Origin: an uncultured Chloroflexia bacterium
GTDB lineage: Bacteria; Chloroflexota; Anaerolineae; Anaerolineales; UBA4823
Assembly: GCA_963714425.1 (NCBI GenBank)
Contig: CAVQOI010000006.1
Span: 6,230 to 70,229, forward strand
Reading direction: 5' to 3'
DNA: 64,000 nucleotides
Of this stretch, positions 22,163-46,738 are shown in pieces (the first letter of the stretch is position 1; the number at the start of each line of letters is the position of its first letter). The position numbers were made by a program, and so were the translations under genes. The notes beneath the pieces are model-generated. The model saw only the letters and a program-made list of their open reading frames with translations, searched no databases and had not been told where the DNA came from.

Positions 22163-22438
22163 CTAAGAACCGTAATGATAGCGCGCCTGCAGGAAGTCGA
22201 TGCGCTCGTCGCGCACCAGGTAGACAATGCGGTGCTCCTGAGACACCCGGCGTGACCAGACGCCGGGCGATAAGTATTTCAATGGTTCCGGCTTGCCGAT
22301 CCCTTTGAATGGGTCGCGTAGGATCGCCTCGATCAGGTTGAATATCCGCAGGGCGGTCTTGCGGTCAGTTTCCACCCAGTACCGCAAGTCTCCCAGGAAT
22401 TCCGGTTGGAAGACCGCCTCACGCTGACCGCGACTCAA
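22163..22438 (-). CDS. yoeB: Txe/YoeB toxin
   Basis: PFKGIGKPEPLK, WSRRVSQEHRIVY, RYHY. Confidence 0.93.
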   Translation of the reverse strand: MSRGQREAVFQPEFLGDLRYWVETDRKTALRIFNLIEAILRDPFKGIGKPEPLKYLSPGVWSRRVSQEHRIVYLVRDERIDFLQARYHYGS

Positions 22439-22709
22439 GGCCTACCTCGCGGCGAAGCACTTCCAGGGTTTGAGGTGAGCCCTCATCGCGCAAGGCGCGC
22501 CCTAATGCAGAGAGCAGCCGCTCGGCGTTCTTGGGAGAGCGCAGTAGGGAAGCTGTCTCTAGCAAGGCCTCCAGCTCATCAACAGACACCAGGGCGACGT
22601 CTTCTTGCCCACGGCGCTGGATAATGACCACCTGGCGGTTTTTGGTGACTTCGTCAAGCAACTTCGCCAGGCTGGCACGCGCCTGTGTGTAATTGGTTTG
22701 GATAGTCAT
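22419..22709 (-). CDS. yefM: Phd/YefM antitoxin
   Basis: NYTQARASLAKLLD, ETASLLRSPKNAERL; overlaps the toxin. Confidence 0.93.
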   Translation of the reverse strand: MTIQTNYTQARASLAKLLDEVTKNRQVVIIQRRGQEDVALVSVDELEALLETASLLRSPKNAERLLSALGRALRDEGSPQTLEVLRREVGLESRSA

Positions 22710-22874: not shown

Positions 22875-24209
22875 TTAGCAATCCAGCAAATAGGTTTCCT
22901 GCTCTTCCAGCACCGTCCTGGGATCGAGCACCACGCGCTCATCCTGTGCGCGTGCGATCAACGGAGGCACTCCCTGGCGCAGCAGCTTCAACAAACGATC
23001 GGGGCTGGGCACATCCAGCGCCAGCAGCCAGGTGGGCAGCGTCTCGCCGGGCAGGCTGCCCCCGCCCACAGTTGATTCGCCAGGGATGACCTCACCTCTT
23101 CCGAGGGTAGCCGCCCAGCGCTCGGCTGTAGCCTTGATCGCCTCGGGCTGAGCGGCGATCATGCGCCAGATGGGGATCTCACGCTCAGCCTCATCCTTCA
23201 GGTAGTGCAGCAAGGTGGCATTCAGCGCCGCCAGGCACAGCTTGTCTGCGCGCACAGCCCGCGCCAGGGGATGTTTCTTCAACTTTGCCACCAGGTCGCG
23301 GCGCCCCACAGCGATGCCTGCCTGCGGGCCGCCCAGCAGCTTGTCGCCGGAAAAGCACACCAGGTCGGCGCCCGCCCTCAGCAATTCCTGCACGGTCGGC
23401 TCGTGCGCCAGCCCAAAGCGGGCCGTGTCCACCAGCGAGCCAGAGCCCAGATCATCCACGACTGGGATGCCAGCCTCGTGTGCAACGGCTGCGATCTCCT
23501 CCAGGGATGGCTCGCTTGTGAAGCCCACGATACGGAAATTGGAGCGATGGGCGCGCAGGAACAGGGCAGGTTTCTCTTCCAGGGCGGCTTCGTAGTCGCT
23601 GAGGTGCACGCGGTTGGTGGTGCCTACCTCCAAGAGCCGCGCTCCGGATTGCTTCATCACATCCGGGACGCGGAAGCCCCCGCCGATCTCCACCAGCTGG
23701 GTGCGCGCGATGACCACTGCCCGGCGGCGCGCCAGAGCAGTCAGCGCCAACAGCACAGCTGCGGCGTTGTTGTTCACCACCAGGGCAGATTCCGCGCCAG
23801 TCAGGCGGGCGAGCAAGGCTTCGGCATGGAACAAGCGCGAGCCGCGCCGCCCTTGCTCCAGGTCATATTCCAGGTTGGAGTAGCTCAGCGAGATCTCTCG
23901 CACCGCATACAAGGAGGCGGCGCTGAGCGGGGCGCGGCCTAAGTTTGTCTGCAGGATGACTCCCGTGGCGTTGATCACAGGCAGCAGGGTGGGCGTCGCC
24001 CAGGTCTGCAGTAAGTCCCTGGCGCGGGCGAGAAGCGCAGGCTGGTCTGGCACAGTTTGTTTTTTGGGGTAATGGAGGCGCGCTTCATCCAGTGCGAGGC
24101 GCAGGGCTTCAACGGTCAGCGGTCGCCCAAAATTGGCGACCCATTCAATCACATCAGGGGATTGCAGGAGCTGGTCAACGGAAGGAAGTGAGCGCAGGTT
24201 AATCGCCAC
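22875..24209 (-). CDS. selA: L-seryl-tRNA(Sec) selenium transferase
   Basis: LRSLPSVD, VINATGV.L.TNLGRA, SNLEYDL, VNNNAAA, LVEIGGGFR, FSGDKLLGGPQAG, VGGGSLP. Confidence 0.97.
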   Translation of the reverse strand: MAINLRSLPSVDQLLQSPDVIEWVANFGRPLTVEALRLALDEARLHYPKKQTVPDQPALLARARDLLQTWATPTLLPVINATGVILQTNLGRAPLSAASLYAVREISLSYSNLEYDLEQGRRGSRLFHAEALLARLTGAESALVVNNNAAAVLLALTALARRRAVVIARTQLVEIGGGFRVPDVMKQSGARLLEVGTTNRVHLSDYEAALEEKPALFLRAHRSNFRIVGFTSEPSLEEIAAVAHEAGIPVVDDLGSGSLVDTARFGLAHEPTVQELLRAGADLVCFSGDKLLGGPQAGIAVGRRDLVAKLKKHPLARAVRADKLCLAALNATLLHYLKDEAEREIPIWRMIAAQPEAIKATAERWAATLGRGEVIPGESTVGGGSLPGETLPTWLLALDVPSPDRLLKLLRQGVPPLIARAQDERVVLDPRTVLEEQETYLLDC

Positions 24210-24615
24210 TCTCCTCCCCGGTCTCTTGTGGCTTCCACTGGCTCTTCTCGCGCATGCGCATCAGCCATTCAATGATGATCAAGCCCACCGCCAGCAATAG
24301 TGCCATTGGGCCGGTGAGCACGCGCCCGATCTGCAGCCAGGCCAGCGTACTGCAGTACACGCCTACCCACAGGGCTTGCCTCAGGATAATGCCGGCATCC
24401 GCGGACGGGACGCTGGGAAATCGCCTGTTGAGAAAAGCGATGGCGGGCAGGGTAGTGCCGGTCAGGGCTAGTACCCCCAGGAAGAAGAACAGCCAGCGCG
24501 GGCCAACTGTTGGTAGGGTCATGAACACCACACCAGCCAGTCCGCCCCAGCCAACCAGCGCCAGTGCGATGGCGGCGGGCAAGACAGATTTTACAGAGGG
24601 AGAAGAATCGTCCAA
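24199..24615 (-). CDS. 4-TM membrane protein overlapping the selA start
   Basis: Four hydrophobic helices; TTG start uncertain; 11-nt overlap with selA. Confidence 0.75.
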   Translation of the reverse strand: MDDSSPSVKSVLPAAIALALVGWGGLAGVVFMTLPTVGPRWLFFFLGVLALTGTTLPAIAFLNRRFPSVPSADAGIILRQALWVGVYCSTLAWLQIGRVLTGPMALLLAVGLIIIEWLMRMREKSQWKPQETGEESGD

Positions 24616-24720: not shown

Positions 24721-26439
24721 TCAGCTTGACGGTAGACTCACCGTGAGACGCGTGCCTTCACCTGGGGTTGAGGCGATTCGCAGGGTGGCGCTGATCAACT
24801 CTGCGCGCTCGTAGAGACCCAGCAGTCCGAAGTGTCCGCCCGGTGCGAACTCTGCCGGGCTTTTGGGCACTTCAAATCCCCTGCCGTTGTCGCTTACCTC
24901 TAGCACCACCTCGTCTGGTGAGAACCGAAATTCAAGCGATGCAGCGCTGGCTTGAGCGTGACGGGCAATATTGCTCAAAGCCTCCTGGGCGATGCGGTAA
25001 AAGGCCAGCTCGATATCAGGCTGTAAGCGCCGCTCCACCCCTATTTTTTGGAATTGGATTTGCAAATCCATCGTTTGTCCGATCTCACGCGTGAGCATCT
25101 CCAGTGCAGTCACCAGCCCGAGGTCTTCCAGGTAGATAGGTCGCAAGGCGCGCGTCAGGCGGCGCAGGTTTTCAATGGTTTGCTCGGTCAGGGCGCTGAG
25201 CTCTGCCAGCGACTCTGGACTGGCCTGATTGCCAATCTGCATCTCGGCGAGCTGGACGCGCTGTTTGAGGGCGATTAGCGACTGCAGGGTGTCATCGTGT
25301 AACTCGCGTGCCAGGCGCCGGCGCTCCTCTTCCTGCGCAGCAGTCATTGCACCAATGTAACCACGCAACCCTTGTTGAGCAGCGCGTACTTTGTGCGCCA
25401 GGTGCACCAGCGCGGTTTGCAGGCGGCGGATCTCCTCGATCCCGCCCACGGGCTTTTGGATGGCGTCAAAATCCCCCCAGGCAAGCTGGGAGGACTTCAC
25501 CTCGAGAGCCTGAAGTGGCTGCACTACCTGGCGCACGGCAAATGCCAGCGCGATTAACGTTAGTAGCAGCACAGGCACCAGCACGAGCGGAGCGATCTGC
25601 GTGGTGCGCAGTGTGGGGGTGGACACCATCTCCCAGGGTTCCTCCACCACCAGAGCCCATCCCAGTGTATCGACTGTGCTGTAAGCCACCACGTGCTCGC
25701 CTTCAGATGTCTGGACATAGACAGTACCGCTCTCACCCTTGAGTGCCTCCGCAATCCCCGAATGTTCGCCAATTGTGGCACTATCCCGAAACTCACCGCT
25801 AATGTATATCGGGTTCCCTGCAGCGTCCACCACGGCTACGCTGGTATGCTCATCCGGGAAGACCGCTGATAGGGCGTTGCTCACTAGAGCATCTGCGGAA
25901 AACGCGCCGGCAGCTACCCAACCGTTTGGGTTGGCAGCCAACACCAGCACAGACGGCTTGCCCAGGGTGTTTGTATGCAGAGTCGCGGTAGTGTGAGGAA
26001 TGTTCTCAGGTGCCGATTGCAGGGATTGGATCATCTCCCGGACAAATTCCTCTCGTTCTTCCCAAAAGGAGCGATCTGCGCGGGTAACTTCCAGGCCGCC
26101 ATCCGGAGCAAAGAAGGCGAGTCCTTGATCAAATTCTGTCAGCAACAATTCCGAAGCCGAGAGGATTTCTTGTGGATCGATACTCCCCACCTGCTGTGCC
26201 AGTCCGCGCACAACCGTGATGCGATGCTGAACCTGTCCATCCAGAGCATCTGCTACTGCGCGCGCCAGGCGTGCATCTCGCTCGCCCACCATGCTGCGCA
26301 TAGCTTTCTGGTGCAGGCTTAAACTACCAAAAGTAATCGCTAACAGCAACGCTGTTAGCGGAAGGATGGTCATCAGGAACAGCTGCAGGGTTAAGCCTCG
26401 CCATCGAGATTGGGCGCCGGACAATGCTTTAAGCCTCAC
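24721..26439 (-). CDS. Sensor histidine kinase (Cache-like, HAMP, HisKA_3, HATPase)
   Basis: EEERRRLARELHDD, QEALSNI.RHA, DNGRGF, FGLLG; 2 TM; start uncertain (GTG 26439 or ATG 26490). Confidence 0.92.
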   Translation of the reverse strand: MRLKALSGAQSRWRGLTLQLFLMTILPLTALLLAITFGSLSLHQKAMRSMVGERDARLARAVADALDGQVQHRITVVRGLAQQVGSIDPQEILSASELLLTEFDQGLAFFAPDGGLEVTRADRSFWEEREEFVREMIQSLQSAPENIPHTTATLHTNTLGKPSVLVLAANPNGWVAAGAFSADALVSNALSAVFPDEHTSVAVVDAAGNPIYISGEFRDSATIGEHSGIAEALKGESGTVYVQTSEGEHVVAYSTVDTLGWALVVEEPWEMVSTPTLRTTQIAPLVLVPVLLLTLIALAFAVRQVVQPLQALEVKSSQLAWGDFDAIQKPVGGIEEIRRLQTALVHLAHKVRAAQQGLRGYIGAMTAAQEEERRRLARELHDDTLQSLIALKQRVQLAEMQIGNQASPESLAELSALTEQTIENLRRLTRALRPIYLEDLGLVTALEMLTREIGQTMDLQIQFQKIGVERRLQPDIELAFYRIAQEALSNIARHAQASAASLEFRFSPDEVVLEVSDNGRGFEVPKSPAEFAPGGHFGLLGLYERAELISATLRIASTPGEGTRLTVSLPSS

Positions 26440-26446
26440 GATGAAA

Positions 26447-27124
26447 TCAATTCTCGTCGATGGTTCCCACGGTTTGGGATATCCAGCCAAGCGATACGGC
26501 GCGCATCACCGCCTCAGTCCGGCTGGCAGCCTGTAGTTTATTGAAGATGTGCGCCAGGTGACCCTGCACGGTTCTGTCGCTGATACCTAATTGCACACCA
26601 ATGGCTTTATTGGTATAGCCTCTGGCAGTCAATTTGAGTACCTCCAGCTCGCGCTCGGTGAGCGCTTCCACCGCTTGCTTATCGGGCTTGCCGGCGATTT
26701 GGGCAATCAATTTGCGGGCGATGGATGCATCCAGGGCGGATTTTCCCGCATGCACGTCCCGCACGGCCCGGATGATCTCACCTGGCGCGGCGGTCTTGAG
26801 CACATAGCCGTTTGCCCCCGCTTGCAAGACAGCCATCACGTAAGGATCATCATCGTAAGCAGTGAGCACCAGCACGCCCACGCTGCGCATGTTGACACGC
26901 ACCCAACGCGTGACCTCGATCCCGCTGGCCTTTGGCATCTGGATATCCAGCACAGCCACATCGGGAGCGTGTTGTTGGATCAGTGCTTTGGCGCTCTCAC
27001 CGTCATCTGCCTCAGCAACCACCTGGATATCGCCGGCGTGCTCAAGAAATTGACGGATACCGGCGCGCACCACAGCGTGGTCATCGGCAAGCAGGACGCG
27101 AATGGGAGGGGTGGGTGCTTCCAT
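26447..27124 (-). CDS. NarL/LuxR family response regulator
   Basis: LADDH, LDIQMP, LTERELEVL...NKAIG..L.IS.RTV. Confidence 0.95.
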   Translation of the reverse strand: MEAPTPPIRVLLADDHAVVRAGIRQFLEHAGDIQVVAEADDGESAKALIQQHAPDVAVLDIQMPKASGIEVTRWVRVNMRSVGVLVLTAYDDDPYVMAVLQAGANGYVLKTAAPGEIIRAVRDVHAGKSALDASIARKLIAQIAGKPDKQAVEALTERELEVLKLTARGYTNKAIGVQLGISDRTVQGHLAHIFNKLQAASRTEAVMRAVSLGWISQTVGTIDEN

Positions 27125-27786
27125 TAGGCTTCCTCAGTGAATAGAGCCCTTTCGAGACGTGGAAAAGCAAACCAGACGAACCCCAGCCCAAACAGCACGC
27201 CAGTCAGCAACCGCATCAGCGAGTTAAAGGACCCCCAGGCGTCTCCTGCGTAGAAGCTAGATGGCAGGGTGTGAGCAGTGATGGCCGCCAGCCATGAGTT
27301 GACTGAGCGAAAGCCTTGCTCATTGCCGGCGAGGTCACTGATGAAGTGGCTGGTGCCATCCAGCGCCATGGGAAAGAGCAGCAGAGCCAAACCCCACCCC
27401 GAGAGCGCCCTTATACGGAGTCGCAAAGGATACCAGATCACGCTAATGAGCCAAACGCTCATAAACATTGATACCATTCGATCAGACCAGGCGACCTTCC
27501 AGCCCATCTCCGGGTTGCCAATGAACTGCCTCAAAACCATGGGGTTCGTTGTGAGCTGCCAGGAGTCCTGAATTTCTGCCAGCGAATAGGTCGCTGCTTG
27601 TCCAAAGAAGAAATACGATCGCTGCGGAAGTTGGTGACAGAAAAAAGAGTAGATGAAGTATATCGCATTTGCCGTCCTCTCCAGCGTCAATTCCATAAGT
27701 ACAGGAGCCAGGAACGGGGTAAGCGCAAATATCCCCAGAAGCACGCTAAATGAGACAAACCAGCGACGAAGCAGAAATGCCATCAC
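27124..27786 (-). CDS. DUF2085-like membrane protein
   Basis: CHQLPQRS motif, PMALDG.SH, RLLTGVLFG. Confidence 0.75.
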   Translation of the reverse strand: MMAFLLRRWFVSFSVLLGIFALTPFLAPVLMELTLERTANAIYFIYSFFCHQLPQRSYFFFGQAATYSLAEIQDSWQLTTNPMVLRQFIGNPEMGWKVAWSDRMVSMFMSVWLISVIWYPLRLRIRALSGWGLALLLFPMALDGTSHFISDLAGNEQGFRSVNSWLAAITAHTLPSSFYAGDAWGSFNSLMRLLTGVLFGLGFVWFAFPRLERALFTEEA

Positions 27787-28139
27787 GAGCTTGATGTCTG
27801 GTTAAGGAGCGTGCGCCGCACGACGCTTTCAAGGTTTTCGTCTGTAGCCTCCCCTGGGGTTTCCACGAGGGTGATGCGCGCATGTTGCCCTCTGCCGTGC
27901 ACGACAAGGCTTGCCGGTTGGGAATTTGGGCCATAGACCAGGAGGACGACGATTTGACAATCGCACTGATTGCTGCCATGCTGCGGGCAAACGCAGTCCG
28001 CATGGGCGAACCGCGCCACCTGGAGGTCAAACGTACGCATGACCTGCAGACCTGCACCAGCCAGCCGCTGGCTTATCCAACGGAGGGTGGCATCAAGAGG
28101 TTGGTCCATTTCCACGATCGGGCTGGCAATCATCATCAC
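27783..28139 (-). CDS. Small Cys/His-rich putative metal-binding protein (DUF302-like fold possible)
   Basis: H-x2-CVCPQH-x4-CDC; stop overlaps the next gene. Confidence 0.7.
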   Translation of the reverse strand: MMMIASPIVEMDQPLDATLRWISQRLAGAGLQVMRTFDLQVARFAHADCVCPQHGSNQCDCQIVVLLVYGPNSQPASLVVHGRGQHARITLVETPGEATDENLESVVRRTLLNQTSSS

Positions 28140-28166
28140 TCACCTTTCTGCCTGCTCAACCACATG

Positions 28167-28661
28167 TCAGGGCACCCAGTTGGAAAGAACAGTCAGTTCA
28201 TGCTCGGGCTGGGTTGGGTCGTTGCTCGCCAGGTGGACGCGAAAGTCGTGCGGTCCTCCCATATCTCCGTGCATCATAAACTTCATCGAAAGGGTCGTCG
28301 TATTTCCCGGTTGAAGGACCATCGAACCGATGGCGGGAGTTGGCGGTCAACACCCCGCCACGACTTCAATGTACGGTGTGTCCTGGAAGCGAAGTGGCTG
28401 GTCGCCAACGTTCGTTAGGTCGAAGGAGACCGTTACCCATTCTCCCAGGCGCACGTCGCCAAGATCAACATGCTCCTTGTCGACCTTCAATTTGGGCGAG
28501 CCATTCACCTCGATGACGGTATTGCTGCCCGATCTGCTTCTGAAGAAAGACCCGGCAGCCAGGATGAGCAAGCCCAAGCCGCCAACGGCAAAGACGATAG
28601 GCCAAAACGATGTACGCTTGCGAGCCTGCTTGAAAGAGCCTTTGGATTTGGTTTGGCTCAT
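28167..28661 (-). CDS. Candidate selenoprotein: membrane-anchored Ig-like (DUF1573-like) protein, 164 aa, Sec at residue 105
   Basis: In-frame TGA (28349-28347) after VVAGC; frame continues 59 codons (PPTPAIGSMVLQPGNTTTLSMKFMMHGDMGGPHDFRVHLASNDPTQPEHELTVLSNWVP), completing the domain; SECIS-like hairpin; selA nearby. Confidence 0.8.
28318..28334 (-). promoter_or_regulatory. Bacterial SECIS-like stem-loop
   Basis: mRNA UGA-N12-GCCAUCG-GUU-CGAUGGU; apical loop about 19-20 nt after UGA and beginning with G. Confidence 0.65.
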
Positions 28662-29674
28662 GGTATTACCTCCATGTCAAATTGGAATGTCCATAAAAAG
28701 GCTACTAGGTCCCAGGTCTCTGCTTCAGTGAAGATCGGACCCCAGTAGGGCATACCCGTGCCCATCCCGCCACGGATTATCTTGCCCTGGAGATGCGCCG
28801 GGCTGGCGGCGAGCATGTGCTCGGCCTCGGTGAAGTCGGTGGGAGGCTGGCTCATCTCCCCCTGTAGCATGTCGGCGTGCTCGCCACCATCGAGTTCAGC
28901 CACCTCGGCTGCGAAAACCCCATCTCCCTTGCCGCTCTCGCCGTGACAGGCAGAGCAATTTTGTAGGTATAGCATCTTCCCGGCGACCAAAGTCTGTGTG
29001 GGTGCATTCAATTGCCAGGCATAAGCCACCAGGTCCCATAAATCCGCATCGGTTAGTTCATGTGAATTATCCAGGTATCCACCTTTACCCAGATCCTTCC
29101 GGGCATCTTCCGGGCTGTGCGTGCGGTAATAATCTACGCTCAGGTACACTTCTGGGATCTTGATCCCCAAGGCCGCGCCGCGCGCAGCCGACGGGCGACG
29201 TTCAGGCAGATCCTCTGCGTGGTGCTCGGCATCAATATCCAGCCCTAATTGGGCATATAATGGCGCAGGCGGTTCGCTGGCATCTGAGGCCCCGCCTGTA
29301 ACCTCGATCGTGCCACGCATACGCCAGTGGTTAGCCCCACACCAGCGCGTGCAGTAGTACGTGTATTTACCCGGCTGGTCGAATAGCAGTTCGACTTCGC
29401 TGTACTGACCTGGCAAGACGTCCACAGCAGGTTTGTCGCTCTGCCCCAAGGCAAAACCATGAACCACATCGTCGGATGTTAGGATCAACCGCAGAGGCAC
29501 ACCCATCTGGGCGGTCAGGTCGCCGGGTATCCAACCGCCTGCCTCGGGCATGCGGGCGCGCACTACCACGACCTGCGCGCTTGGAAAGAGCCAGTAAAGG
29601 CTCACCGCCAGCGCGATTGAGAGGAGCAATCCCAGGACCAGTATGCGAGCCAGCCGTTCCGAGCGCGTTATCAT
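28658..29674 (-). CDS. CuA-type cupredoxin fused to cytochrome c
   Basis: N-terminal TM, DVVHG + CTRWCGANHWRM (CuA ligand pattern), CSACH heme motif, GMP axial Met; ATG at 29674 right after the upstream stop. Confidence 0.85.
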   Translation of the reverse strand: MITRSERLARILVLGLLLSIALAVSLYWLFPSAQVVVVRARMPEAGGWIPGDLTAQMGVPLRLILTSDDVVHGFALGQSDKPAVDVLPGQYSEVELLFDQPGKYTYYCTRWCGANHWRMRGTIEVTGGASDASEPPAPLYAQLGLDIDAEHHAEDLPERRPSAARGAALGIKIPEVYLSVDYYRTHSPEDARKDLGKGGYLDNSHELTDADLWDLVAYAWQLNAPTQTLVAGKMLYLQNCSACHGESGKGDGVFAAEVAELDGGEHADMLQGEMSQPPTDFTEAEHMLAASPAHLQGKIIRGGMGTGMPYWGPIFTEAETWDLVAFLWTFQFDMEVIP

Positions 29675-29675
29675 C

Positions 29676-31031
29676 TCAAGCCACCAATACCCCCAGCATC
29701 CCGAGTGTAAACCCAAGGCTGAATATTGCCACAGGCAGTGCCAGAAGACGTGCAGGGCGCTCTGGCAGGCTCTCAGAAGCGATCCGGTAGGCTGTGCGCG
29801 CAGACCAGATAAGCCCACCAAGCAATACTGCCACCTGAAGGGCGGGCACAGCACTGCTCAAATAAGGCGTCCAGGTTGCGCCAGACGTGCCCAATAAGTT
29901 CCAGCCCCAGCCCATCGGGTCGGACAAGACAGGCCAGATATAGGAGGCATTGGCAAACACAAAGGAGAGACTGAATGCGATCCAGGCAGAGAGTCCCAGC
30001 GGCACCATGGCGTAGCCAAAACGGATGAAAGCCCTGCGCAGGGGGAGCTGGATGCCTGAAAGTCGCCTTCCCAGCCAGACAGCCAGCCAGAACAAGCCAG
30101 GCAAGATGCCCAAAACAAATAGCACGAACACCAGGGCATAGATCAGCCAGGGCAGGCTGCCTGTTGCATTTGCGGCCATTTTGAGTGCACCCCAAGGACC
30201 GAGCATCATCGCTGAATACAACATGGCTGAGCCAAGCATGATAAAGGCTTTGTAGACCTCATCCAGACTTTGCCCGCGAATTTGATCAAGGTCGGCGCCG
30301 AAAGGCCGTAGCCGGATGGCAACGTTATCATGCGGGCAGGTACGCAAGCACTCCATGCAGGTCCCGCAATATGTGTTCTTCACCAGACCACCCGGGAAGA
30401 CCTGCCAGGGGCAGCCGTAACCATCGGAATTTCCAGTGTAACAAGTTTTCTCTGTATGAGCGGCGCAAATGGCAGTATCGCGCACGCGCACCTCCATAGG
30501 AGCAAGCTGCGAGTACAGTCCGATAAACCCACCTACCGGGCAAAGGTAACGGCAGAAGGCGCGCCGCTCGAAGACAAGGCTGGCGCCAATCGCCAGGAAT
30601 AAGAAAGCTGCCAGCACCACCGCAGAGATCAGCGGCTGGGTAAGCACGGTGATGCTGAAAAGCGCGATCAGCAGGAATCCTGCATTTTGCAGCCAAATAT
30701 TTCGCAGACGGTTCGGCCAGCGCAAACCCAGGCCAATTCCTTTACCTCCGGGTTTCAAGATTGCTCCGCGCTGCAACCACTCACCGGGTACCGGGATCGG
30801 GCAGATGCTGCACCAGCCGCGCCCGAAGAAGGGCACCGCCACCAGGATCAGGATCGCCCACCAAGCAATCCATACGAAGATGATGCTGAAATTGCGGCTG
30901 CCAACCGGCGTTCCGAACACCCCTGAGACAATCGCAACCACAAAACCGCCCAGAGCGACCAATGTGACCAGTAGCTGGGGCCAGCGGTTGCGCAAAATCG
31001 CCATTACGAGAGGGTTGCGGGTGATATCCAT
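29676..31031 (-). CDS. Membrane polyferredoxin (NapH/RdxA/FixG-like 4Fe-4S binding protein)
   Basis: GRGWCSICP, FCRYLCPVG, C-x5-C-x8-CP, CGTCMECLRTCP; multiple TM. Confidence 0.88.
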   Translation of the reverse strand: MDITRNPLVMAILRNRWPQLLVTLVALGGFVVAIVSGVFGTPVGSRNFSIIFVWIAWWAILILVAVPFFGRGWCSICPIPVPGEWLQRGAILKPGGKGIGLGLRWPNRLRNIWLQNAGFLLIALFSITVLTQPLISAVVLAAFLFLAIGASLVFERRAFCRYLCPVGGFIGLYSQLAPMEVRVRDTAICAAHTEKTCYTGNSDGYGCPWQVFPGGLVKNTYCGTCMECLRTCPHDNVAIRLRPFGADLDQIRGQSLDEVYKAFIMLGSAMLYSAMMLGPWGALKMAANATGSLPWLIYALVFVLFVLGILPGLFWLAVWLGRRLSGIQLPLRRAFIRFGYAMVPLGLSAWIAFSLSFVFANASYIWPVLSDPMGWGWNLLGTSGATWTPYLSSAVPALQVAVLLGGLIWSARTAYRIASESLPERPARLLALPVAIFSLGFTLGMLGVLVA

Positions 31032-31035
31032 GCTT

Positions 31036-31512
31036 TCAAGTTCGCTTCGTTGCGAGAGAGAAGACGACAGCTAGGGCTAACAACGCCAGGCTTGCGGAAC
31101 GCCAGATCAGTGTATTACTACCGACCACAAGTTTCCCTGTCATAAACGGATGCAGTGCACCGCAAGTTACCGAGCAGCGCAGTCGGAACGTCCCCGGTTG
31201 GTTGGCAGTGAAGGAAAGGCGCTCTGCCTGGCCTGGATCGGCGGTTTGGCTGAGCCCGTAACCATCGATGTAGATACCATGCACGACATCTGTGGAAATC
31301 AGCTCGATGGTGACCTGGTCTCCTGTGTTCACGTGGATGGTTGCAGGGGAATATTGGTAAGCACTGGCGTGGACACGAAAGGTGCGTTCCTGTGGAGCGA
31401 TCGCACCCGCTGGAGCGGGAGCAAATATGATGATCGCGCCCATCCCTAGCCAGACCAGCCACTGCCAGGGTTTGAGAACCTTGCTAATTCTCGTCGGTGG
31501 GTAAGCGTTCAA
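31036..31512 (-). CDS. Small membrane-anchored CuA-type cupredoxin (COX2-like domain)
   Basis: DVVHG + CSVTCGALHPFM; RBS GGAGG before TTG at 31512. Confidence 0.85.
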   Translation of the reverse strand: MNAYPPTRISKVLKPWQWLVWLGMGAIIIFAPAPAGAIAPQERTFRVHASAYQYSPATIHVNTGDQVTIELISTDVVHGIYIDGYGLSQTADPGQAERLSFTANQPGTFRLRCSVTCGALHPFMTGKLVVGSNTLIWRSASLALLALAVVFSLATKRT

Positions 31513-31622
31513 TACGATCCGCCTCCAGTAAATTATTTGCAAACGTTAATTTTAGACCTTCCCCCTCCCGCCGCCTGCGCTTGTTGCGGCTTACAAGGAG
31601 GCCGGAGAGAGGCCGGGAACAT

Positions 31623-32063
31623 TCAGGGCATATTGGAAGGCCCATATTTGGCGTAGGTCTGATCTACATAGGAGCGTATTTCTGCTACGCTCTTATCCTG
31701 CTTGAGCAGGCGCATTGCGTCTAGGGTTATATCGACACAGATCGAACAGCCCTGGGCGTGCGCGTCGTAGATCGGGGCTCCGTTCGGATCCACGCCCGAG
31801 GCATAACAGGCATAGTTAGACGTGTGCCCCATGGCGCCGCACCCGCAGTAACAGGGGAGTTGCTCGAGCACATCCGGGTTAGCAAAAGCGAACTGGTATG
31901 CCTGCTGGACCGAGACTGGCGCAGACTGGACCTCCGCTGGCATTTCCTCGAGGGAGGCCATCTTTAGTTGCGTTGCGCTGGACGTGTCTTCACCGGAACA
32001 GCCGGCTGCCAGGAGCGTAATGGAAAGCAGGAGTACGAAGACAAGCAATGGTTTTCGTTTCAT
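31623..32063 (-). CDS. PCYCGC motif lipoprotein
   Basis: Lipobox AAGC; PCYCGC, H-x-SN-x2-CY, HAQGCSIC; start may be 32069. Confidence 0.9.
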   Translation of the reverse strand: MKRKPLLVFVLLLSITLLAAGCSGEDTSSATQLKMASLEEMPAEVQSAPVSVQQAYQFAFANPDVLEQLPCYCGCGAMGHTSNYACYASGVDPNGAPIYDAHAQGCSICVDITLDAMRLLKQDKSVAEIRSYVDQTYAKYGPSNMP

Positions 32064-32156
32064 GGGCATTGGCATTCCTGAGTGAGTGAATGTAACCGCC
32101 ATTGTTAGACATTATAAAGGTGTGTATTTGTGACAGATAGCGCAATCTGCCGGGTG

Positions 32157-32184
32157 GGGGTATAGGCATTAATGCCTATACCCC
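32157..32184. promoter_or_regulatory. Perfect 28-bp palindrome in the divergent promoter region; probable operator
   Basis: ggggtataggcatt|aatgcctatacccc. Confidence 0.65.
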
Positions 32185-32254: not shown

Positions 32255-32770
32255 ATGAAAACCGCATTGATTTTGCTTCTGGCTGGGATGTTGTTGGCTG
32301 CATGCGGATTGCCTGTCTGGGGTATGCGCCGTCCTGATCCCCAAGGGTCGAATGCGTGGTTTGGGCAAAAGCATGACTCAGACGGTGAGCAAATCTATCT
32401 CACTGCCACCAACCAGCAGGGTGAGAGCATCCCATACACAGGTGGACCGGGCTCTGGTGGCATGATGCAATCGCGGTTGGCTTGCGTCTCCTGTCACGGG
32501 AAGGGCGGCAAGGGCGGGGAGCATTGGATGCACATGGATTATATGAAAGCGCCGGAGATCCGCTGGCAAGCTTTGAACAATGAGGAACGGGATGAGCATG
32601 AGGGATTGGAAGGGGACGCTCACGAGGGCTATACGCTGGAGATGTTCCGCCAGGCCGTGGTCGATGGGCAGCATCCGGATGGGGAAGCCCTCGATTGGGA
32701 TATGCCCCGCTGGCAGTTGGCAGATGGTGACCTAGAGGACTTGTTCGAGTATTTGAAGACCCTGCCATAG
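32255..32770 (+). CDS. Monoheme cytochrome c lipoprotein
   Basis: Lipobox LAAC, CVSCH, DMPRW; His/Glu-rich loop. Confidence 0.85.
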   Translation: MKTALILLLAGMLLAACGLPVWGMRRPDPQGSNAWFGQKHDSDGEQIYLTATNQQGESIPYTGGPGSGGMMQSRLACVSCHGKGGKGGEHWMHMDYMKAPEIRWQALNNEERDEHEGLEGDAHEGYTLEMFRQAVVDGQHPDGEALDWDMPRWQLADGDLEDLFEYLKTLP

Positions 32771-41580: not shown

Positions 41581-43539
41581 TCATTCCTGCACGCTTACCA
41601 GAACTGCGCGCACAACCCGCCGCCAGGAGTAATCGCCGCTCTTTTCATTAAATCCCTGGCAGGTGATCAGAGTGACCCAATCCAGGTCCTCGTGCTTGAG
41701 CACGCCCAGTTGCTCCGGTTTGACCATCGTATTCTCGCGCACCTCGTATATATAGCGTGTGCCCCAGGCGTGGATGACCACCTGGTCGCCAAAACGCAGC
41801 GTGTGCAGTTTCGCGAAGGGCCCCGGCTTGCCATCCGAGAGCACGGTATGCCCCGCCAGGCCGGTGTTGCCCTGCCAGGTGGGAAACGCGGTGCCCTCCA
41901 GGTATCCAGCCTGGTCGCCCAGCCAGCGCACGTCCCACCCGCTGCCCGATTTGGGCACCCCGGCGATTTCCATCTGCACATCCAGGGCGGGGATGTCCAG
42001 CGTCATGGCGCCGTAGTCCTGGTAAGACAGGCTGGCGGGCTGGGCAGGGAGCGCGGTCTGCACCATGGGAGCGAAACCTGTCTCAGGTAGCTGCACCGGC
42101 CCCAGCAGGCTCAGGAATGCCTCGCCAGCGCGCGTTTTCCGGTTCGGGTCGCGCCCATTGGCGCCCACTACAAACCAGTTGCCATGCACGCTCACAGACT
42201 TGCCGAAGTAGTCGTCCTCCTGGGCAGGATCGGTGACGGCACGCGTTTGCATGCTCCATTCGCCGTTGGCTTTTTTGAATACATACACTGCCCCGGCCCC
42301 AGAGTTGCCCGATTGGGTTGCGCCATCGGCGCCCACCACAATCGTGTCGCCATAGATATCCACCGACTGTCCGAACTGGTCGAAGGGCAGGCCATAAGGC
42401 GCGGTGAGCATGGTGGTCTCCTCCCACTCGTCACCGGTATCGGTAAAAACGTAAGCTGCTCCGCCGCTGGTCACGCGTCCATTGCCAATTTTCGGGTCGG
42501 CGTGGCTGGCGCCAACTACCACCGTTTTGCCGTATACTGCCACCGAGTTGCCGAATGCGTCGCCCGGGCGATCGTCTGTGGCTTCCAGACAAGCTATTTG
42601 ATTCCAATTTCCTCCACTTCGGCTGAACAGGATCACCTTGCCGGGACCGCTCACATCCGTGGGGTCGAACTGGGTGGCGCCGACCGCCGCCAGGTTTCCG
42701 TAGATTGCGACAGACGTGCCGAAGTAATCGCCGAACCAAGGGAGGCAGGACTTGTTTATATCAAGGTAAGAATCATTGTCGGCCTTACCAGGAAACAGCT
42801 TGGCCTGCTGCCTCCAGTTCTTGCCGCTGCCGTAGAAGACATAGGCTGCTCCCCCATCGAAAAAGAGTGGGAATATATCCGTGGGATCTGGTCCAACAAC
42901 CTTTAGATCCTTGGTTTCCGCAGCGACAACGGCGGTGTTCTTATGGATGGCAACCGCTGAGCCGAAACCATCGTCCTCGGCGCGGTCGTCGGGGATGAGC
43001 TTGACCTGCTGCACCCAATCGCCGCTGGTGCGCGTGAACACGTAGGCCGCGCCGGCGTCCTTGAGCTCACCATCCTCCTCGTTCTCAATCTCGTCCTCAT
43101 CCGTGATATCCACACCGGTGGCGCCGACGAGGATAGTGTTACCGCTAATGGCAACCGAGACGCCAAATGTATCCCCAGGGGACGGGTTTTTAGCCGTGAG
43201 CTTGGCATCCAGGATCCAGGTTTTCCCGTTGTAGGTGTAAACATAGGCAGCCCCGGCGTTGTCGATGGGACCGTTGCCCAGGTTTGGGTCGGCATTGCGC
43301 GCCCCCACCACGGCGGTGTTGCCATCGATTGCCACAGCGAAGCCGAACTCGTCCAGGATATCCCCATCGGGCGCGGCCACCGACCACTGCTGGACGACGC
43401 CCAATGACGACAGGGCGCTGGGGGCTGGTTGCACGGCTGCCAGGCCGGGCGGTGCCGCCAGCGAGAAAGCCAGTGCGATAAGCAGTGGGATGGCTAGCAG
43501 GCGTTTGTGCTTTGTGTGGGTTGTACCTGTAGGTTGCAT
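41581..43539 (-). CDS. Secreted FG-GAP repeat beta-propeller fused to a sortase domain
   Basis: Signal peptide; about 7 FGxSVAIxGxxxVVGA...GAAYVF repeats; LPETG; sortase AGH, TLITC, R; RBS GGAGGAG. Confidence 0.88.
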   Translation of the reverse strand: MQPTGTTHTKHKRLLAIPLLIALAFSLAAPPGLAAVQPAPSALSSLGVVQQWSVAAPDGDILDEFGFAVAIDGNTAVVGARNADPNLGNGPIDNAGAAYVYTYNGKTWILDAKLTAKNPSPGDTFGVSVAISGNTILVGATGVDITDEDEIENEEDGELKDAGAAYVFTRTSGDWVQQVKLIPDDRAEDDGFGSAVAIHKNTAVVAAETKDLKVVGPDPTDIFPLFFDGGAAYVFYGSGKNWRQQAKLFPGKADNDSYLDINKSCLPWFGDYFGTSVAIYGNLAAVGATQFDPTDVSGPGKVILFSRSGGNWNQIACLEATDDRPGDAFGNSVAVYGKTVVVGASHADPKIGNGRVTSGGAAYVFTDTGDEWEETTMLTAPYGLPFDQFGQSVDIYGDTIVVGADGATQSGNSGAGAVYVFKKANGEWSMQTRAVTDPAQEDDYFGKSVSVHGNWFVVGANGRDPNRKTRAGEAFLSLLGPVQLPETGFAPMVQTALPAQPASLSYQDYGAMTLDIPALDVQMEIAGVPKSGSGWDVRWLGDQAGYLEGTAFPTWQGNTGLAGHTVLSDGKPGPFAKLHTLRFGDQVVIHAWGTRYIYEVRENTMVKPEQLGVLKHEDLDWVTLITCQGFNEKSGDYSWRRVVRAVLVSVQE

Positions 43540-44524: not shown

Positions 44525-46738
<2,214 letters not shown>

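Follow-up and report, generated by a model that had tools for sequence, protein, structure and literature searches.

A conserved operon of CuA, heme c, Fe-S and selenocysteine proteins in an uncultured Chloroflexia bacterium, possibly an undescribed copper-handling machine

Genes and features of the locus

In the window (the whole stretch of 64,000 nucleotides analysed, from an uncultured Chloroflexia bacterium), nine co-oriented genes, most of them abutting, occupy positions 24721-32102 of the minus strand (Table 1). According to the gene coordinates, taken in gene order from the PCYCGC end, the first four junctions are gaps of 80, 4 and 1 nt and a 4-nt overlap, and the last four are a 27-nt gap and overlaps of 4, 1 and 44 nt. 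The initial annotation had described nine co-oriented, mostly abutting or overlapping genes, and all nine were found on the minus strand; the position at which it ended the operon, 32063, is a real Met codon (MKRKPLL), but is internal to the PCYCGC gene, which runs to 32102.

Table 1. Coordinates of the operon genes, the divergent neighbours and the nucleotide features
Feature	Position	Strand	Remarks
HisKA_3 sensor kinase	24721-26490	-	~260-aa extracytoplasmic domain, weakly Cache-like
NarL/GerE response regulator	26447-27124	-	Response_reg + GerE
DUF2085 membrane protein	27124-27786	-	PF09858, 28.7 bits (cut-off 25)
118-aa Cys/His-rich protein, cytoplasmic	27783-28139	-	CVCPQH-x4-CDC; general motif CxCPxHGxxxCxC
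Ig-like DUF1573 selenoprotein, membrane-anchored	28167-28661	-	PF07610, 33.5 bits (cut-off 26.1)
SECIS-like hairpin	28318-28334	-	7 bp, loop GUU; starts 12 nt past UGA
CuA + cytochrome c fusion, membrane-anchored	28658-29674	-	COX2, Cytochrom_C and Cytochrome_CBB3 domains
Fer4_5 polyferredoxin, polytopic membrane, NapH/NosR/CcoG superfamily	29676-31031	-	PF12801
CuA-motif cupredoxin	31036-31542	-	Cupredoxin_1 and COX2 domains
PCYCGC-family lipoprotein, extracytoplasmic	31623-32102	-	PF13798, 94.4 bits (cut-off 25)
Perfect 28-nt palindrome	32157-32184		GGGGTATAGGCATT/AATGCCTATACCCC; 14-nt arms, 100% complementary
Lipoprotein c-type cytochrome, 171 aa, divergent	32255-32770	+	Cytochrom_C, 24.9 bits
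Met/Gly-rich membrane protein, 123 aa	32901-33272	+	C-terminal zinc ribbon

The PCYCGC lipoprotein has the lipobox LLAAGC and an alternative start at 32063, scores 74.6 against NF041379 (under the cut-off of 90), and keeps the features PCYCGCG..GH.S...C and H..GC.IC (Cys/His across 53 orthologs). The DUF1573 gene has an in-frame TGA at 28347-28349, conserved in 47 of the 52 loci with a match, which gives the vicinal Cys-Sec motif GCUPP when translated with TGA as U; the protein has a conserved Met/His motif (FMMHGDMGGxHDF) and an Ig/PapD-like fold in its AF2 model (pLDDT 86). The SECIS-like hairpin pairs in 99.7% of 287 cells with 3 covarying pairs, whereas slid controls pair in 17-67% of cells and 0 of 500 shuffles reached the observed score. 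Sec/Cys exchange was found in both outer-face proteins, since PCYCGC variants carrying TGA (H..G[U]SIC) occur in loci L036 and L050.

The CuA-cytochrome c fusion, whose likely start is MITRSERL, 1 nt past the polyferredoxin stop, carries DVVHG...CTRWCGANHWRM and the heme site CSACH, and its CuA and CxxCH/GGMGTGMPYWG motifs are conserved among 62 orthologs. Its architecture is like that of caa3 subunit II, with just 31% identity over 88 aa to the real CoxB of the genome. An N-terminal anchor, together with a TM helix at the C-terminus, holds the cupredoxin (DVVHG...CSVTCGALHPFM) in the membrane; its ligands H88, C123, C127 and H131 are the same in all 32 sequences compared, and M134 is kept in at least 90% of them. 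The polyferredoxin has 11 invariant Cys (48 sequences). It carries the motifs CxxCP and CxxxCP as well as a ferredoxin domain in which seven Cys are invariant, and the predicted location of all of these is the cytoplasmic side, opposite the cupredoxin-contacting loops. Its NCBIfam matches are weak (NapH/MauN, the closest, and NosR) and include no CcoG-named model, it has no Fer4_18 or FixG_C domain, and the PDB fold search with its AF2 model (pLDDT 87) gave no match. In 6 genomes, polyferredoxin paralogs other than those of the islands described below are found at 1.5-4 kb from COX1 genes.

Complex modelling, suggested in the initial annotation, was run for the cupredoxin and the polyferredoxin and predicted docking, with a score of 0.74 versus 0.00 for the best control; this mark was attained by 58/80 solved complexes and 2/110 mismatched pairs. 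Contact agreement among runs was at least 78% and partner pLDDT at least 75. The predicted contacts join the CuA loop (residues 118-137) to the polyferredoxin outer loops 43-46, 127-132 and 275-288, and the C-terminal helix of the cupredoxin lies against the last two polyferredoxin helices. As the polyferredoxin resembles no solved fold, such a pass is unlikely to reflect a memorised structure, and the model supports a predicted seat of the cupredoxin on the outer face of the polyferredoxin.

The 118-aa Cys-rich protein had no match in Pfam, NCBIfam or PDB, and in the Atlas search matched Chloroflexota hypothetical proteins only. The DUF2085 protein keeps CHQxPxRS, WSDR and DGxSH (27-sequence alignment), and a paralog on contig C8 stands beside CopA, CcdA and ResA.

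Conservation and the palindromic operator

The cassette was compared among 80 related loci from several phyla (mostly Anaerolineae; also Gemmatimonadota, Rokubacteria and others). The four-gene core (PCYCGC lipoprotein, CuA cupredoxin, Fer4_5 polyferredoxin and CuA-cytochrome c fusion) has a near-constant order: where there was enough flank, PCYCGC was upstream in 68/68 loci, the cupredoxin upstream in 72/74 and the CuA-cytochrome c gene downstream in 64/68. This arrangement far exceeds chance, and the cluster, which the initial annotation allowed might prove not to be conserved, is kept. In the 39 well-sampled loci (at least 8 kb on each side), the DUF1573-Sec gene occurred in 34, orthologs of the NarL-type regulator in 29 and of the kinase in 26, the DUF2085 gene in 19, the 118-aa Cys-rich gene in 16, the Met/Gly-rich protein in 6 and the divergent cytochrome c gene in 4.

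The operator core, TAGGCA-N4-TGCCTA (32163-32178), is upstream of both the PCYCGC ATG, at a distance of 61 nt, and the divergent cytochrome c gene, at 77 nt, and its exact form occurs once in the source genome. When one mismatch or fewer was tolerated, it was found upstream of PCYCGC in 29/71 loci versus 0/71 in the reversed control, and was commoner with the NarL-type regulator in the locus (22/37 versus 7/34). The 80 loci held 52 operator sites (29 before PCYCGC, 10 before an MCO gene, 6 before DUF1573-Sec, 3 before the Cys-rich gene), only 2 of which had no labelled gene nearby; in genome G160, 11 of 12 sites fell within its two islands, and control sites numbered 2. The palindrome is presumably bound by the NarL-type regulator that the operon itself encodes, and the earlier description of the system as self-regulated agrees with this conserved operator. 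The divergent cytochrome c, which shares the operator region and whose gene is preceded by one operator site in the loci, and the Met/Gly-rich zinc-ribbon protein are possible members of the regulon. On the other side, 42/71 loci had no operator within one mismatch, the sites directly before CopA in genomes G160 and G218 carry 2 mismatches, and no metal ligand (Cys, His or Met) is conserved in the sensor domain of the kinase.

Copper genes, oxidases and alternative readings

CopA, MCO or HMA genes were found within ~10 kb in 21/39 well-sampled loci. Copper ATPases stand beside the cassette in Gemmatimonadota loci L015 and L023, and a CopR/CopS-like pair with Lgt does so in L017. The islands of G160 and G218 hold, with the cassette, CopA(YHS+HMA), ResA, Lgt, a cupredoxin, a YtkA/FixH-like protein, a polyferredoxin paralog, an MCO and an HMA protein; homologs of the Met/Gly-rich protein head their CopA gene string, and in both genomes the response-regulator ortholog is encoded in one operon with multicopper-oxidase and DUF2085 genes. 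Relatives have the operator ahead of multicopper-oxidase operons, and its sites are concentrated in islands that also hold copper ATPases, CcdA, DsbA and ResA. The copper handling claimed at first fits these neighbours and the shared operator, and the claimed electron transfer is in line with the conservation of the CuA, heme c and Fe-S ligands and with the predicted cupredoxin-polyferredoxin complex. The cassette is probably, though by no means surely, a copper-regulon electron-transfer module. Against this, no CopA, MCO or HMA gene was near the cassette in 18/39 well-sampled loci; in the window no copper gene adjoins it, and the CopA loci of the genome are on contigs C8 and C12.

The identity of the neighbours also bears on whether the module handles not copper but a different soft metal or a metalloid (Ag, Hg, Se/Te), which we regard as highly improbable. 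Cys-Sec and CxxC/UxxC motifs have a high affinity for Hg and Ag, and SelA lies 500 nt downstream in this genome. Several Sec-containing families that the selenoproteome reviews list are tied to mercury or arsenic (PMC13188914). However, the best-scoring model for the neighbouring ATPases is the copper-translocating one (TIGR01511, 602-609 bits), the oxidases nearby belong to the copper-resistance MCO type, the annotated parts of the loci showed neither mer nor ars genes, and SelA adjacency is kept in 0/80 loci.

The islands also suggest a device for copper trafficking, sequestration or cuproprotein maturation with no substrate redox chemistry, where the polyferredoxin would reduce cytoplasmic Cu(II) for export like CcoG/FixG, the Ig-like protein would act like FixH or PCuAC, and the "CuA" cupredoxins would buffer Cu(I) in binuclear sites, for which Streptococcus pneumoniae CupA, with its cupredoxin-like binuclear Cu(I) site, is a precedent. 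The polyferredoxin paralog, YtkA/FixH-like protein and copper ATPase of the islands form a fixGHI-like set, and the paralogs near COX1 genes accord with this reading. CcoG, a cupric reductase of the polyferredoxin superfamily, raises copper tolerance (PMC7558416). This reading is nevertheless quite unlikely: both the complete set of CuA ligands (2 His, 2 Cys, Met) and the fused heme c are strictly conserved, which argues for electron transfer; the predicted stable TM-helix docking suits a subunit rather than a client; and CcoG-type models and domains are absent from the polyferredoxin matches.

As first annotated, the window contains neither COX1 nor nosZ. The only COX1 of the genome is on another contig, the one caa3 oxidase comes with a subunit II of its own and with a Sco protein, and genome-wide matches to NosZ models were limited to the two CuA domains of this cluster, no NosZ being found. 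COX1 occurred in 43/46 carriers, and separately in 63/74 carriers versus 210/327 non-carriers (class sample, hand collation). This frequency leaves room for a respiratory role, in which a NapH/NosH-like quinol dehydrogenase would feed caa3 oxidase, NosZ or another reductase through the CuA centres and the fused cytochrome c, induced when copper is plentiful, much as plastocyanin replaces cytochrome c6. The closest profile matches of the polyferredoxin, the caa3-like shape of the fusion, and the intact NosZ in 2/11 COX1-negative carriers point the same way. However, neither COX1 nor NosZ was seen in 8/74 carrier genomes, including G066 (96% complete) and G162 and G198 (93%); five cytochrome b genes and an NrfD-type complex are present in the genome of the window as it is; the cassette accompanies copper-export and thiol-repair genes, not respiratory ones; and the PCYCGC, Cys-Sec, Cys-rich and DUF2085 genes are left unaccounted for. 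We hold a respiratory branch to be unlikely. Nor does the cluster match a known oxidase or Nos maturation locus with catalytic genes elsewhere, a possibility raised in the initial annotation, since the genome lacks NosZ and there are carriers in which neither COX1 nor NosZ was seen; the cassette appears to stand outside any known oxidase, in a copper-stress regulon.

Proposed mechanism

Our preferred reading, which we put forward tentatively, is a self-regulated, copper-regulon CuA/heme c/Fe-S complex that exchanges electrons with outer-face copper on thiol/selenol proteins. On binding the palindrome, the regulator would induce the operon in response to copper (or silver) stress. Electrons would leave the membrane or cytoplasmic pool via the polyferredoxin, in the manner of NapH, NosH and NosR, and be handed on at the outer face from CuA to CuA to heme c. 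Cu(II) would then be reduced to Cu(I) at the Cys/Sec/Met/His sites of the outer-face proteins, namely the PCYCGC lipoprotein and the Ig-like Cys-Sec protein with its Met/His motif, and these sites would keep Cu(I) for sequestration or hand-over. Such a module would be the outer-face counterpart of CcoG, a cytoplasmic cupric reductase.

Outward cupric reduction as the reaction, with its putative direction and substrate, is less likely than not, and more doubtful than the copper-regulon electron-transfer module as such. To our knowledge, in every characterised CuA protein electrons pass from cytochrome c to CuA and then inward, opposite to the favoured direction. Also, the protective value of extracellular Cu(I) production is not obvious, and the membrane part of the polyferredoxin (48 sequences) has no conserved His, Met or Cys for cross-membrane electron passage, which leaves the route from cytoplasmic Fe-S to outer CuA unexplained.

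Inward flow, the direction of all known CuA enzymes, would instead suit an O2-independent cuprous (or ferrous) oxidase, in which Cu(I) on the Cys/Sec/Met/His proteins would give its electron to CuA and heme c, and thence to a terminal oxidase or to the polyferredoxin, the cassette being the anaerobic partner of the same-regulon multicopper oxidase, as proposed for FtrB/FtrD, in which the polyferredoxin FtrD would be the electron sink. The MCO genes do belong to the same regulon, the predicted seat of the cupredoxin on the polyferredoxin resembles that of subunit II on subunit I, and in L082 the gene after the cassette encodes an FTR1 permease, although FTR1 adjoins the cassette in only 2/80 loci. 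The potentials of CuA and heme c are about +250 mV; these centres are poor oxidants for Cu(I) on thiolates or selenolate, and onward transfer to low-potential Fe-S clusters or menaquinone would be uphill. FtrB, which is a cupredoxin, has been investigated for Fe(II) oxidase function (PMC11966278). On balance, cuprous oxidation has a low probability.

The literature search found no published description of the operon, which supports the initial suggestion that it is possibly undescribed. The operon, akin to NapH/NosR/CcoG-type modules as a variant of them, may be an undescribed bacterial copper-handling machine.

The nine-gene cassette and its conservation

Nine open reading frames (ORFs) lie closely spaced in one orientation (Table): in gene order, the first three junctions are gaps of 80, 4 and 1 nt, the fourth is a 4-nt overlap, the fifth a 27-nt gap, and the last three are overlaps of 4, 1 and 44 nt. 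The operon as described in the initial annotation was right in every item. Promoter-like sites in the promoter/terminator scan were not above shuffles, terminator-like sites were only modestly above them, and neither kind was informative. The Atlas search with the 118-aa Cys-rich protein returned Chloroflexota hypothetical proteins only, and sequence searches of the PDB with three of the proteins gave no match below E 0.4.

Relatives of the polyferredoxin were collected by a scan with one genome per species, and the best 80 of 112 were taken. These best 80 were mostly from Anaerolineae; four were metagenome-assembled genomes (MAGs) of Gemmatimonadota, and a Rokubacteria MAG, a Sulfomarinibacteraceae MAG, a bin labelled Clostridiales and the cultured Thermanaerothrix solaris were also among them. 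Neighbours were counted by tblastn with the window's proteins against these 80 loci. Conservation of the neighbourhood, which had been proposed as a check, was borne out: the PCYCGC gene was upstream on the same strand in all 68 loci with enough flank, the small cupredoxin gene was directly upstream of the polyferredoxin gene in 72 of 74 loci, and the CuA-cytochrome c gene was directly downstream of it in 64 of 68. Of the 39 well-sampled loci (at least 8 kb on each side), 34 contained the Sec gene, 29 the regulator, 26 the kinase, 19 the DUF2085 gene and 16 the Cys-rich gene. In the sample of the class, orthologs (E <= 1e-100) were counted by inspection in 74 of 401 genomes. The cassette is conserved and patchily distributed, and it is probably mobile.

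SelA and a small membrane protein follow the kinase gene. Adjacency of SelA to the Sec-containing operon was found in 0 of the 80 loci and is not conserved. A toxin/antitoxin pair lies beyond SelA, and three genes elsewhere in the window (catalase-peroxidase type, FG-GAP/sortase and 7TM-PAS-GAF-GGDEF) are all large (Table).

Table. Location of the cassette genes and of other features in the window and in related genomes (G, genome; C, contig; L, locus around a polyferredoxin relative; G000, the window's genome)
Feature	Location	Strand	Assignment or remark
Nine-ORF operon	24721-32102	minus	the next nine rows, in gene order
PCYCGC lipoprotein		minus	PF13798, 94.4 bits; lipobox LLAAGC
Small cupredoxin with CuA pattern		minus	Pfam/NCBIfam
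Fer4_5 membrane polyferredoxin, 451 aa		minus	Pfam/NCBIfam, PF12801
Second CuA cupredoxin fused to c-type cytochrome		minus	Pfam/NCBIfam
DUF1573 protein with interrupting TGA		minus	Pfam/NCBIfam
118-aa Cys/His-rich protein		minus	Pfam/NCBIfam; family-less
DUF2085 membrane protein		minus	Pfam/NCBIfam
NarL/GerE response regulator		minus	Pfam/NCBIfam; Response_reg + GerE
HisKA_3 kinase		minus	Pfam/NCBIfam
SelA	22875-24209	minus	selenocysteine synthase, directly downstream of kinase
Small membrane protein	24199-24615	minus	between SelA and kinase, 105 nt after kinase
Perfect 28-nt palindrome	32157-32184		upstream of PCYCGC
YoeB toxin / Phd-YefM antitoxin	22163-22709	minus	PF06769 116.9 bits, PF02604 62.1 bits; between SelA and M24 peptidase
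Catalase-peroxidase-type gene	44546-46738	plus	PF00141
FG-GAP repeat protein fused to sortase domain	41581-43608	minus	
7TM-PAS-GAF-GGDEF protein	7074-10055	plus	
Second copper-type locus	G000:C8:481024-489737		second Lgt + ResA, CopA (YHS + HMA), CcdA-like, ResA, DUF2085 paralog (28% identity)
G160 island copy, L084/L090	G160:C1, about 4.257-4.287 Mb		
G160 island copy, L085/L086/L092	G160:C1, about 3.084-3.129 Mb		
G160/G218 island, part 1			beta-propeller protein, then Cys-rich gene
G160/G218 island, part 2			operon of MCO, YtkA/FixH-like, DUF3105, DUF2085, orthologous regulator + kinase
G160/G218 island, part 3			CcdA, DsbA-like protein, rhodanese
G160/G218 island, part 4			zinc-ribbon Met-rich protein
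G160/G218 island, part 5			CopA (YHS + HMA domains), ResA, Lgt, methyltransferase, cupredoxin, DoxX, YtkA-like, polyferredoxin paralog
G160/G218 island, part 6			MCO or HMA protein
G160/G218 island, part 7			further HMA protein, then cassette
YtkA/FixH-like Ig-domain proteins	L082:7150-9232; L090:10575-11006		beside polyferredoxin paralog + copper ATPase, or beside MCO
NosZ gene in five pieces	G270:C1:924986-926718		
COX1-near polyferredoxin paralogs	G087:C22, G129:C64, G166:C119, G396:C22, G361:C361, G268:C108		

The predicted Cys-Sec protein and probable Sec forms of PCYCGC

With TGA read as U, the DUF1573 frame continues through GCUPP and a Met/His-rich stretch to ...SNWVP. The protein scores 33.5 bits with PF07610 (gathering threshold 26.1), and its AF2 model is Ig/PapD-like, with a fold match to 2qsv; the fold search with this model returned generic Ig/PapD-like folds and nothing else. 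C-G-C is the hallmark motif of the DUF1573 family; here C-U-P, as GCUPP, takes its place. TGA was found within GCUPP in 47 of the 52 loci with a DUF1573 match, the exceptions being Cys-Cys in two (L055 and L058), the classical SCGCT, retained in L019, and two genes truncated at contig ends.

A SECIS-like hairpin (7 bp, loop GUU) starts 12 nt past the UGA. It was aligned in 41 of 44 distinct sequences (three near-duplicates were excluded, as two chance motif matches had been earlier); 99.7% of the hairpin cells pair, and three pairs covary (G-C/A-U, C-G/U-A and A-U/G-C). The score was equalled by 0 of 500 shuffles, slid controls pair in 17-67% of cells, and some species have a stem-preserving peptide change from IGSM to VGST. 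Support for the hairpin comes from this covariation and not from the single-sequence fold, in which the region was no better than shuffles (z = -0.10); Rfam gave just two sub-threshold chance matches. The Sec machinery of the genome includes the tRNA-Sec on contig C1 and SelA (443.6 bits). With a conserved in-frame UGA, a downstream SECIS hairpin and the Sec machinery, the DUF1573 protein of the cassette is a predicted selenoprotein.

The PCYCGC protein scores 94.4 bits with PF13798 (threshold 25) and just 74.6 with NF041379 (threshold 90); the family motif reads PCYCGCG in 64 cases and PCFCGCG in 1. Two orthologs (L036:9362 and L050:9330), whose hosts are an Anaerolineae MAG and a Rokubacteria MAG, have an in-frame TGA at the first Cys of H..GCSIC, as HAFG[U]SIC, and are probable Sec forms.

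In the portions consulted of a selenoproteome survey and a review (PMC9312934, PMC13188914), DUF1573 and CYCXC (PF13798) are described as occasionally Sec-containing, with the motifs UGC and UxxC; these are the same two Pfam families as the Cys/Sec proteins of the cassette. The TGA position in L036 and L050 agrees with the UxxC form given there for PF13798. Compared with the UGC form of DUF1573 in those portions, the Sec of the cassette protein follows the first Cys, C-U-P replacing C-G-C, and Sec is the rule in this subfamily (47/52 loci) rather than the exception. The strings 'GCU' and 'CUPP' are absent from the main text of the 2026 review (PMC13188914), the supplementary tables of which may hold GCU-type DUF1573.

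CuA proteins and polyferredoxin in relation to known systems

The ligands H...CxxxCxxxHxxM are present in a cupredoxin domain of both CuA proteins of the cluster and are conserved across orthologs; the COX2 Pfam scores are 37.1 and 33.1 (gathering threshold 22). Neither protein matches COX2_TM (PF02790), which is present in the CoxB of the genome, and with TIGR02866 (CoxB) they score 52.5 and 49.6 against a cut-off of 147.7. The genome has exactly three CuA domains. Its one COX1, on contig C4, sits with its own CuA-cytochrome c subunit II (COX2_TM), subunit III and an adjacent Sco, and no subunit I is left as a partner for the cluster; the fusion protein is 31% identical to CoxB over 88 residues. 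When NosZ models of clades II and III were run against the whole genome, just the two CuA domains of the cluster were matched, in that run and in the protein scan alike over the last 60-98 model positions only, which correspond to the CuA domain and not to the CuZ beta-propeller. An accessory locus of the oxidase or of Nos was rejected on these grounds, the caa3 operon having its own subunits II and III and Sco and the genome having no NosZ of any clade; it is also contradicted by genomes that carry the cassette (carriers) and have neither enzyme. Replacement of complex III was weakened as a candidate by the five cytochrome b genes and the NrfD-type gene of the genome.

Co-occurrence with coxA and nosZ had also been proposed as a check, and the outcome was divided: COX1 is common among carriers and is not required. 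It was found in 43 of 46 carriers and, in tallies collated by hand from listings, in 63 of 74 carriers vs 210 of 327 other genomes of the class (the tallies 119/401 and 273/401 and the derived 210/327 take in an unpublished genome, G371, on which no further claim depends). The 11 COX1-negative carriers were searched again; 8 had no match even at E 0.001 and 3 had weak fragments. NosZ was intact in two of the 11 and broken in one. The cassette's CuA proteins do not depend on the oxidase or on NosZ, because eight carriers have neither, among them G066 (96% complete), G162 and G198 (93%). A copper-switched respiratory branch, for which these counts also matter, is rather unlikely. The NosZ gene of G270 was matched in five consecutive pieces with shifting frames (Table); the gene may be disrupted or misassembled. 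Six genomes of the class have polyferredoxin paralogs (about 30% identity) at 1.5-4 kb from COX1 genes, so that another branch of the polyferredoxin family is linked to heme-copper oxidases, in the way that CcoG is linked to cbb3.

The AF2 model of the polyferredoxin, made from 48 sequences, is confident (pLDDT 87, pTM 0.88) and begins with four helices, followed by a small ferredoxin domain and a bundle at the C-terminus; its fold search of the PDB gave no match at E <= 0.001. GWCSICP, FCRYLCP, CGTCMECLRTCP, C189, C197 and C207 are invariant in the 48 sequences, and two CX3CP-type motifs with a cytoplasmic poly-Cys ferredoxin domain are present, as in NapH/MauN. From the positive-inside rule, the CxxCP and CxxxCP motifs and the ferredoxin domain would face the cytoplasm, as in NapH. 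The multimer prediction proposed earlier was made for one pair, the small cupredoxin with the polyferredoxin, and docked the two with a mark of 0.74 vs 0.00 for the best control. Among 80 solved complexes, 58 attained that mark, as did 2 of 110 mismatched pairs. Contacts agreed between runs to 78% or more, and the pLDDT of the partner was 75 or higher. In the predicted complex, the C-terminal helix of the cupredoxin lies against polyferredoxin helices 394-449, and the CuA-ligand loop contacts loops 43-46, 127-132 and 275-288, which had been assigned beforehand to the outer face. The model supports binding of the cupredoxin to the polyferredoxin. No conserved His, Met or Cys that might relay electrons was found in the membrane part among the 48 sequences; for the route across the membrane, a quinone site is our guess.

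In NapGH, NosGH and NosR, too, the membrane polyferredoxin has two CX2-3CP motifs and a ferredoxin domain on the cytoplasmic side, and its partners are a redox protein outside the cytoplasm and a c-type cytochrome; NosR works together with a CuA-bearing enzyme. However, the cassette polyferredoxin scores 30.7 with TIGR02163 (cut-off 213) and 28.8 with NF007013 (cut-off 234) for NapH/MauN and 15.7 for NosR (cut-off 1000); it has 451 aa rather than the roughly 260-290 aa and four helices of NapH and adds a C-terminal bundle of about six helices. Its outer partner is a CuA cupredoxin, and NapG/NosG, an FMN domain and a Nap or Nos catalytic subunit are absent from the cassette. The caa3 subunit II resembles the fusion protein in its CuA ligand pattern, C-terminal c-type cytochrome and membrane anchoring, whereas the fusion protein is anchored by one helix and not by the COX2_TM pair, scores 49.6 against 147.7 for CoxB and has no adjacent subunit I (in some carriers none at all).

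CcoG/FixG with fixGHIS resembles the cassette in its Fer4_5 polyferredoxin and its copper-related setting, an Ig-like membrane protein and a P-type copper ATPase being close by. The cassette polyferredoxin differs in having PF12801 only, Fer4_18 and FixG_C being absent, and no CcoG-named model was among its NCBIfam matches at E 0.01 or better; moreover, the Ig-like protein of the cassette is separate (the DUF1573 selenoprotein), the cassette additionally encodes two CuA proteins and a heme c, and there is no strict tie to an oxidase. According to the portion consulted of PMC7558416, cupric reduction by CcoG affects copper tolerance, which CcoG raises, and CcoG has a periplasmic Ig-like domain of unknown role. 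YtkA/FixH-like Ig-domain proteins in L082 and L090 (Table) give an arrangement that resembles fixGHI outside any cbb3 oxidase context. A role in trafficking or maturation only, in the style of fixGHI, would fit the shared features of this comparison and not the added redox proteins, and is improbable.

FtrABCD likewise has a periplasmic cupredoxin gene beside a membrane polyferredoxin, which we take to be FtrD, and a metal-binding periplasmic protein, and the proposed coupling of a metal redox change to a membrane electron sink is a further likeness. An O2-independent cuprous oxidase, in which the reaction would run inward as proposed for FtrB/FtrD, draws on this likeness; it is a fairly unlikely alternative. 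FtrB is not a CuA protein in the portion consulted of PMC11966278. The cassette also differs from FtrABCD (P19, FTR1) in having no permease in the operon and no gene assigned to P19, FTR1 being on contig C4 and adjoining the cassette in 2 of the 80 loci and in L082. The tests for membership in NapH, NosR, CcoG, CoxB and NosZ were all negative; by analogy, the module may work like NapGH/NosGH or the NosR-NosZ pair, in a context like that of fixGHIS.

Copper neighbourhood, operator and proposed role

Recurrent neighbours were found by clustering all ORFs of the loci. Lgt adjoins in 18 of the 39 well-sampled loci; multicopper oxidases (MCOs) of copper-resistance type were found in 13, copper-translocating P-type ATPases (TIGR01511, ~600 bits) in 10, ResA-like proteins in 10 and CcdA-like proteins in 9. 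CopA, an MCO or a heavy-metal-associated domain (HMA) protein was present in 21 of the 39. With two CopA-like genes and a single MCO-like gene in the 3.9 Mb of the window's genome, chance adjacency is estimated to be of the order of 1-2%. In Gemmatimonadota, CopA is beside the cassette in L015 and L023, and in L017 a CopR/CopS-like pair with Lgt follows it. The copper link crosses phyla, and a soft metal other than copper as the substrate is very improbable.

G160 and G218 belong to the same taxonomic order as the window's genome, and in both the cassette closes an island of about 37 kb (Table). The complete genome G160 has the whole copper island twice, cassette included, in opposite orientations, which suggests duplication or mobility. 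The window's genome has the island companions away from the cassette, on contig C8 (Lgt with ResA, followed by CopA, CcdA, ResA and a DUF2085 paralog), and at that locus no operator was found at up to two mismatches.

The core of the palindrome upstream of PCYCGC, TAGGCA-N4-TGCCTA (the operator), is the sole exact site in the genome. A second operator-like site with one mismatch (C8:81512), beside genes for a CoA-binding protein and adenylosuccinate lyase, is probably due to chance. When at most one mismatch is allowed, 29 of 71 loci have the operator in the 250 nt upstream of the PCYCGC gene, at a median distance of 99 nt (reversed-hexamer control, 0/71); it is commoner with a NarL-type regulator in the locus (22/37) than without (7/34). 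The 52 operator sites in 1.2 Mb of loci precede PCYCGC (29), an MCO gene (10), the Sec gene (6) and the Cys-rich gene (3); two have no labelled gene nearby. In G160, 11 of 12 operator sites are within the two islands (vs 2 control sites), and in G218, 4 of 6 are just upstream of the island stretch examined. The sites directly before CopA in these two genomes have two mismatches, so the tie of the operator to CopA is weaker than that to MCO. The operon's own regulator may bind the palindrome, to judge from its 6-4-6 symmetry, the autoregulated arrangement and the association of regulator and operator. Conserved metal ligands were looked for in the sensor domain of the kinase, and none was found.

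Known copper-resistance regulons (CopRS/CusRS with CopA/PcoA, CueO and CopA ATPase; the CopI cupredoxin) share two-component control with the proposed cassette regulon, as well as MCO, copper ATPase, thiol-repair and cupredoxin genes. The proposed regulon differs in its operator, in the NarL/GerE regulator and HisKA_3 kinase in place of an OmpR-type regulator with a cztS/silS/copS-type HisKA kinase, and in cupredoxins whose CuA sites would be connected to Fe-S and heme; a pair like CopR/CopS is found with the cassette in some loci only (e.g., L017).

The general reading, a copper-regulon electron-transfer module, is probable, and is close to the self-regulated electron-transfer or copper-handling system that the initial annotation had proposed. 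The computed features behind it are the conserved operon, the conserved ligands of two CuA centres, of one heme c and of Fe-S clusters, the predicted complex of cupredoxin and polyferredoxin, two Cys/Sec proteins of the outer face and an operator shared with copper genes. In the mechanism that we propose, the regulator would switch the operon on under copper stress, electrons would exit via the polyferredoxin, as in NapH, NosH and NosR, and would then traverse the two CuA centres and the heme, and Cu(II) would be reduced to Cu(I) on the Cys-Sec/Met/His and PCYCGC sites. The potentials of CuA and heme c are about +250 mV; as the Cys-Sec/Met/His and PCYCGC sites favour Cu(I), reduction of Cu(II) would be feasible at such potentials. 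By analogy, this mechanism would unite the two characterised roles of the superfamily, outward electron supply and the cupric reduction of CcoG. Outward cupric reduction itself is put forward tentatively as the reaction.

No description of the cluster was found in a full-text literature search, the scope of which excluded supplementary files. The literature found on PCYCGC, DUF1573 and DUF2085 did not describe it, none was found that links polyferredoxin, cupredoxin and copper, or FtrABCD with polyferredoxin, and no title listed for NapH, cupredoxin and CuA concerned it. The cassette could, with considerable doubt, represent a new enzyme system in which CuA has a third setting. In full, and as tentatively, the cassette might encode the first CuA-based enzyme system without heme-copper oxidase, NosZ or PmoD: a polyferredoxin-CuA-CuA-heme c membrane complex for extracytoplasmic copper redox (cupric reduction or O2-independent cuprous oxidation) at a vicinal Cys-Sec/Met/His site, under a previously unrecognised NarL-type copper regulon (operator TAGGCA-N4-TGCCTA) and transferred across at least four phyla.

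The exporters, oxidases and chaperones of bacterial copper homeostasis are well known. To our knowledge, almost no bacterial copper reductases have been defined apart from CcoG, and no O2-independent periplasmic copper oxidase is known. A conserved self-regulated complex of this composition would, if the proposal is true, close one of these gaps. Four families that lack a function (PCYCGC, the cassette subfamily of DUF1573, DUF2085 and the 118-aa Cys-rich protein) would acquire one, CuA centres would have a third biological setting, and a metal-site motif would join the rare cases in which selenocysteine is the norm. The Anaerolineae are abundant in sediments and wastewater and difficult to study at the bench, and the operator is an immediate handle for the definition of a copper regulon in this group.
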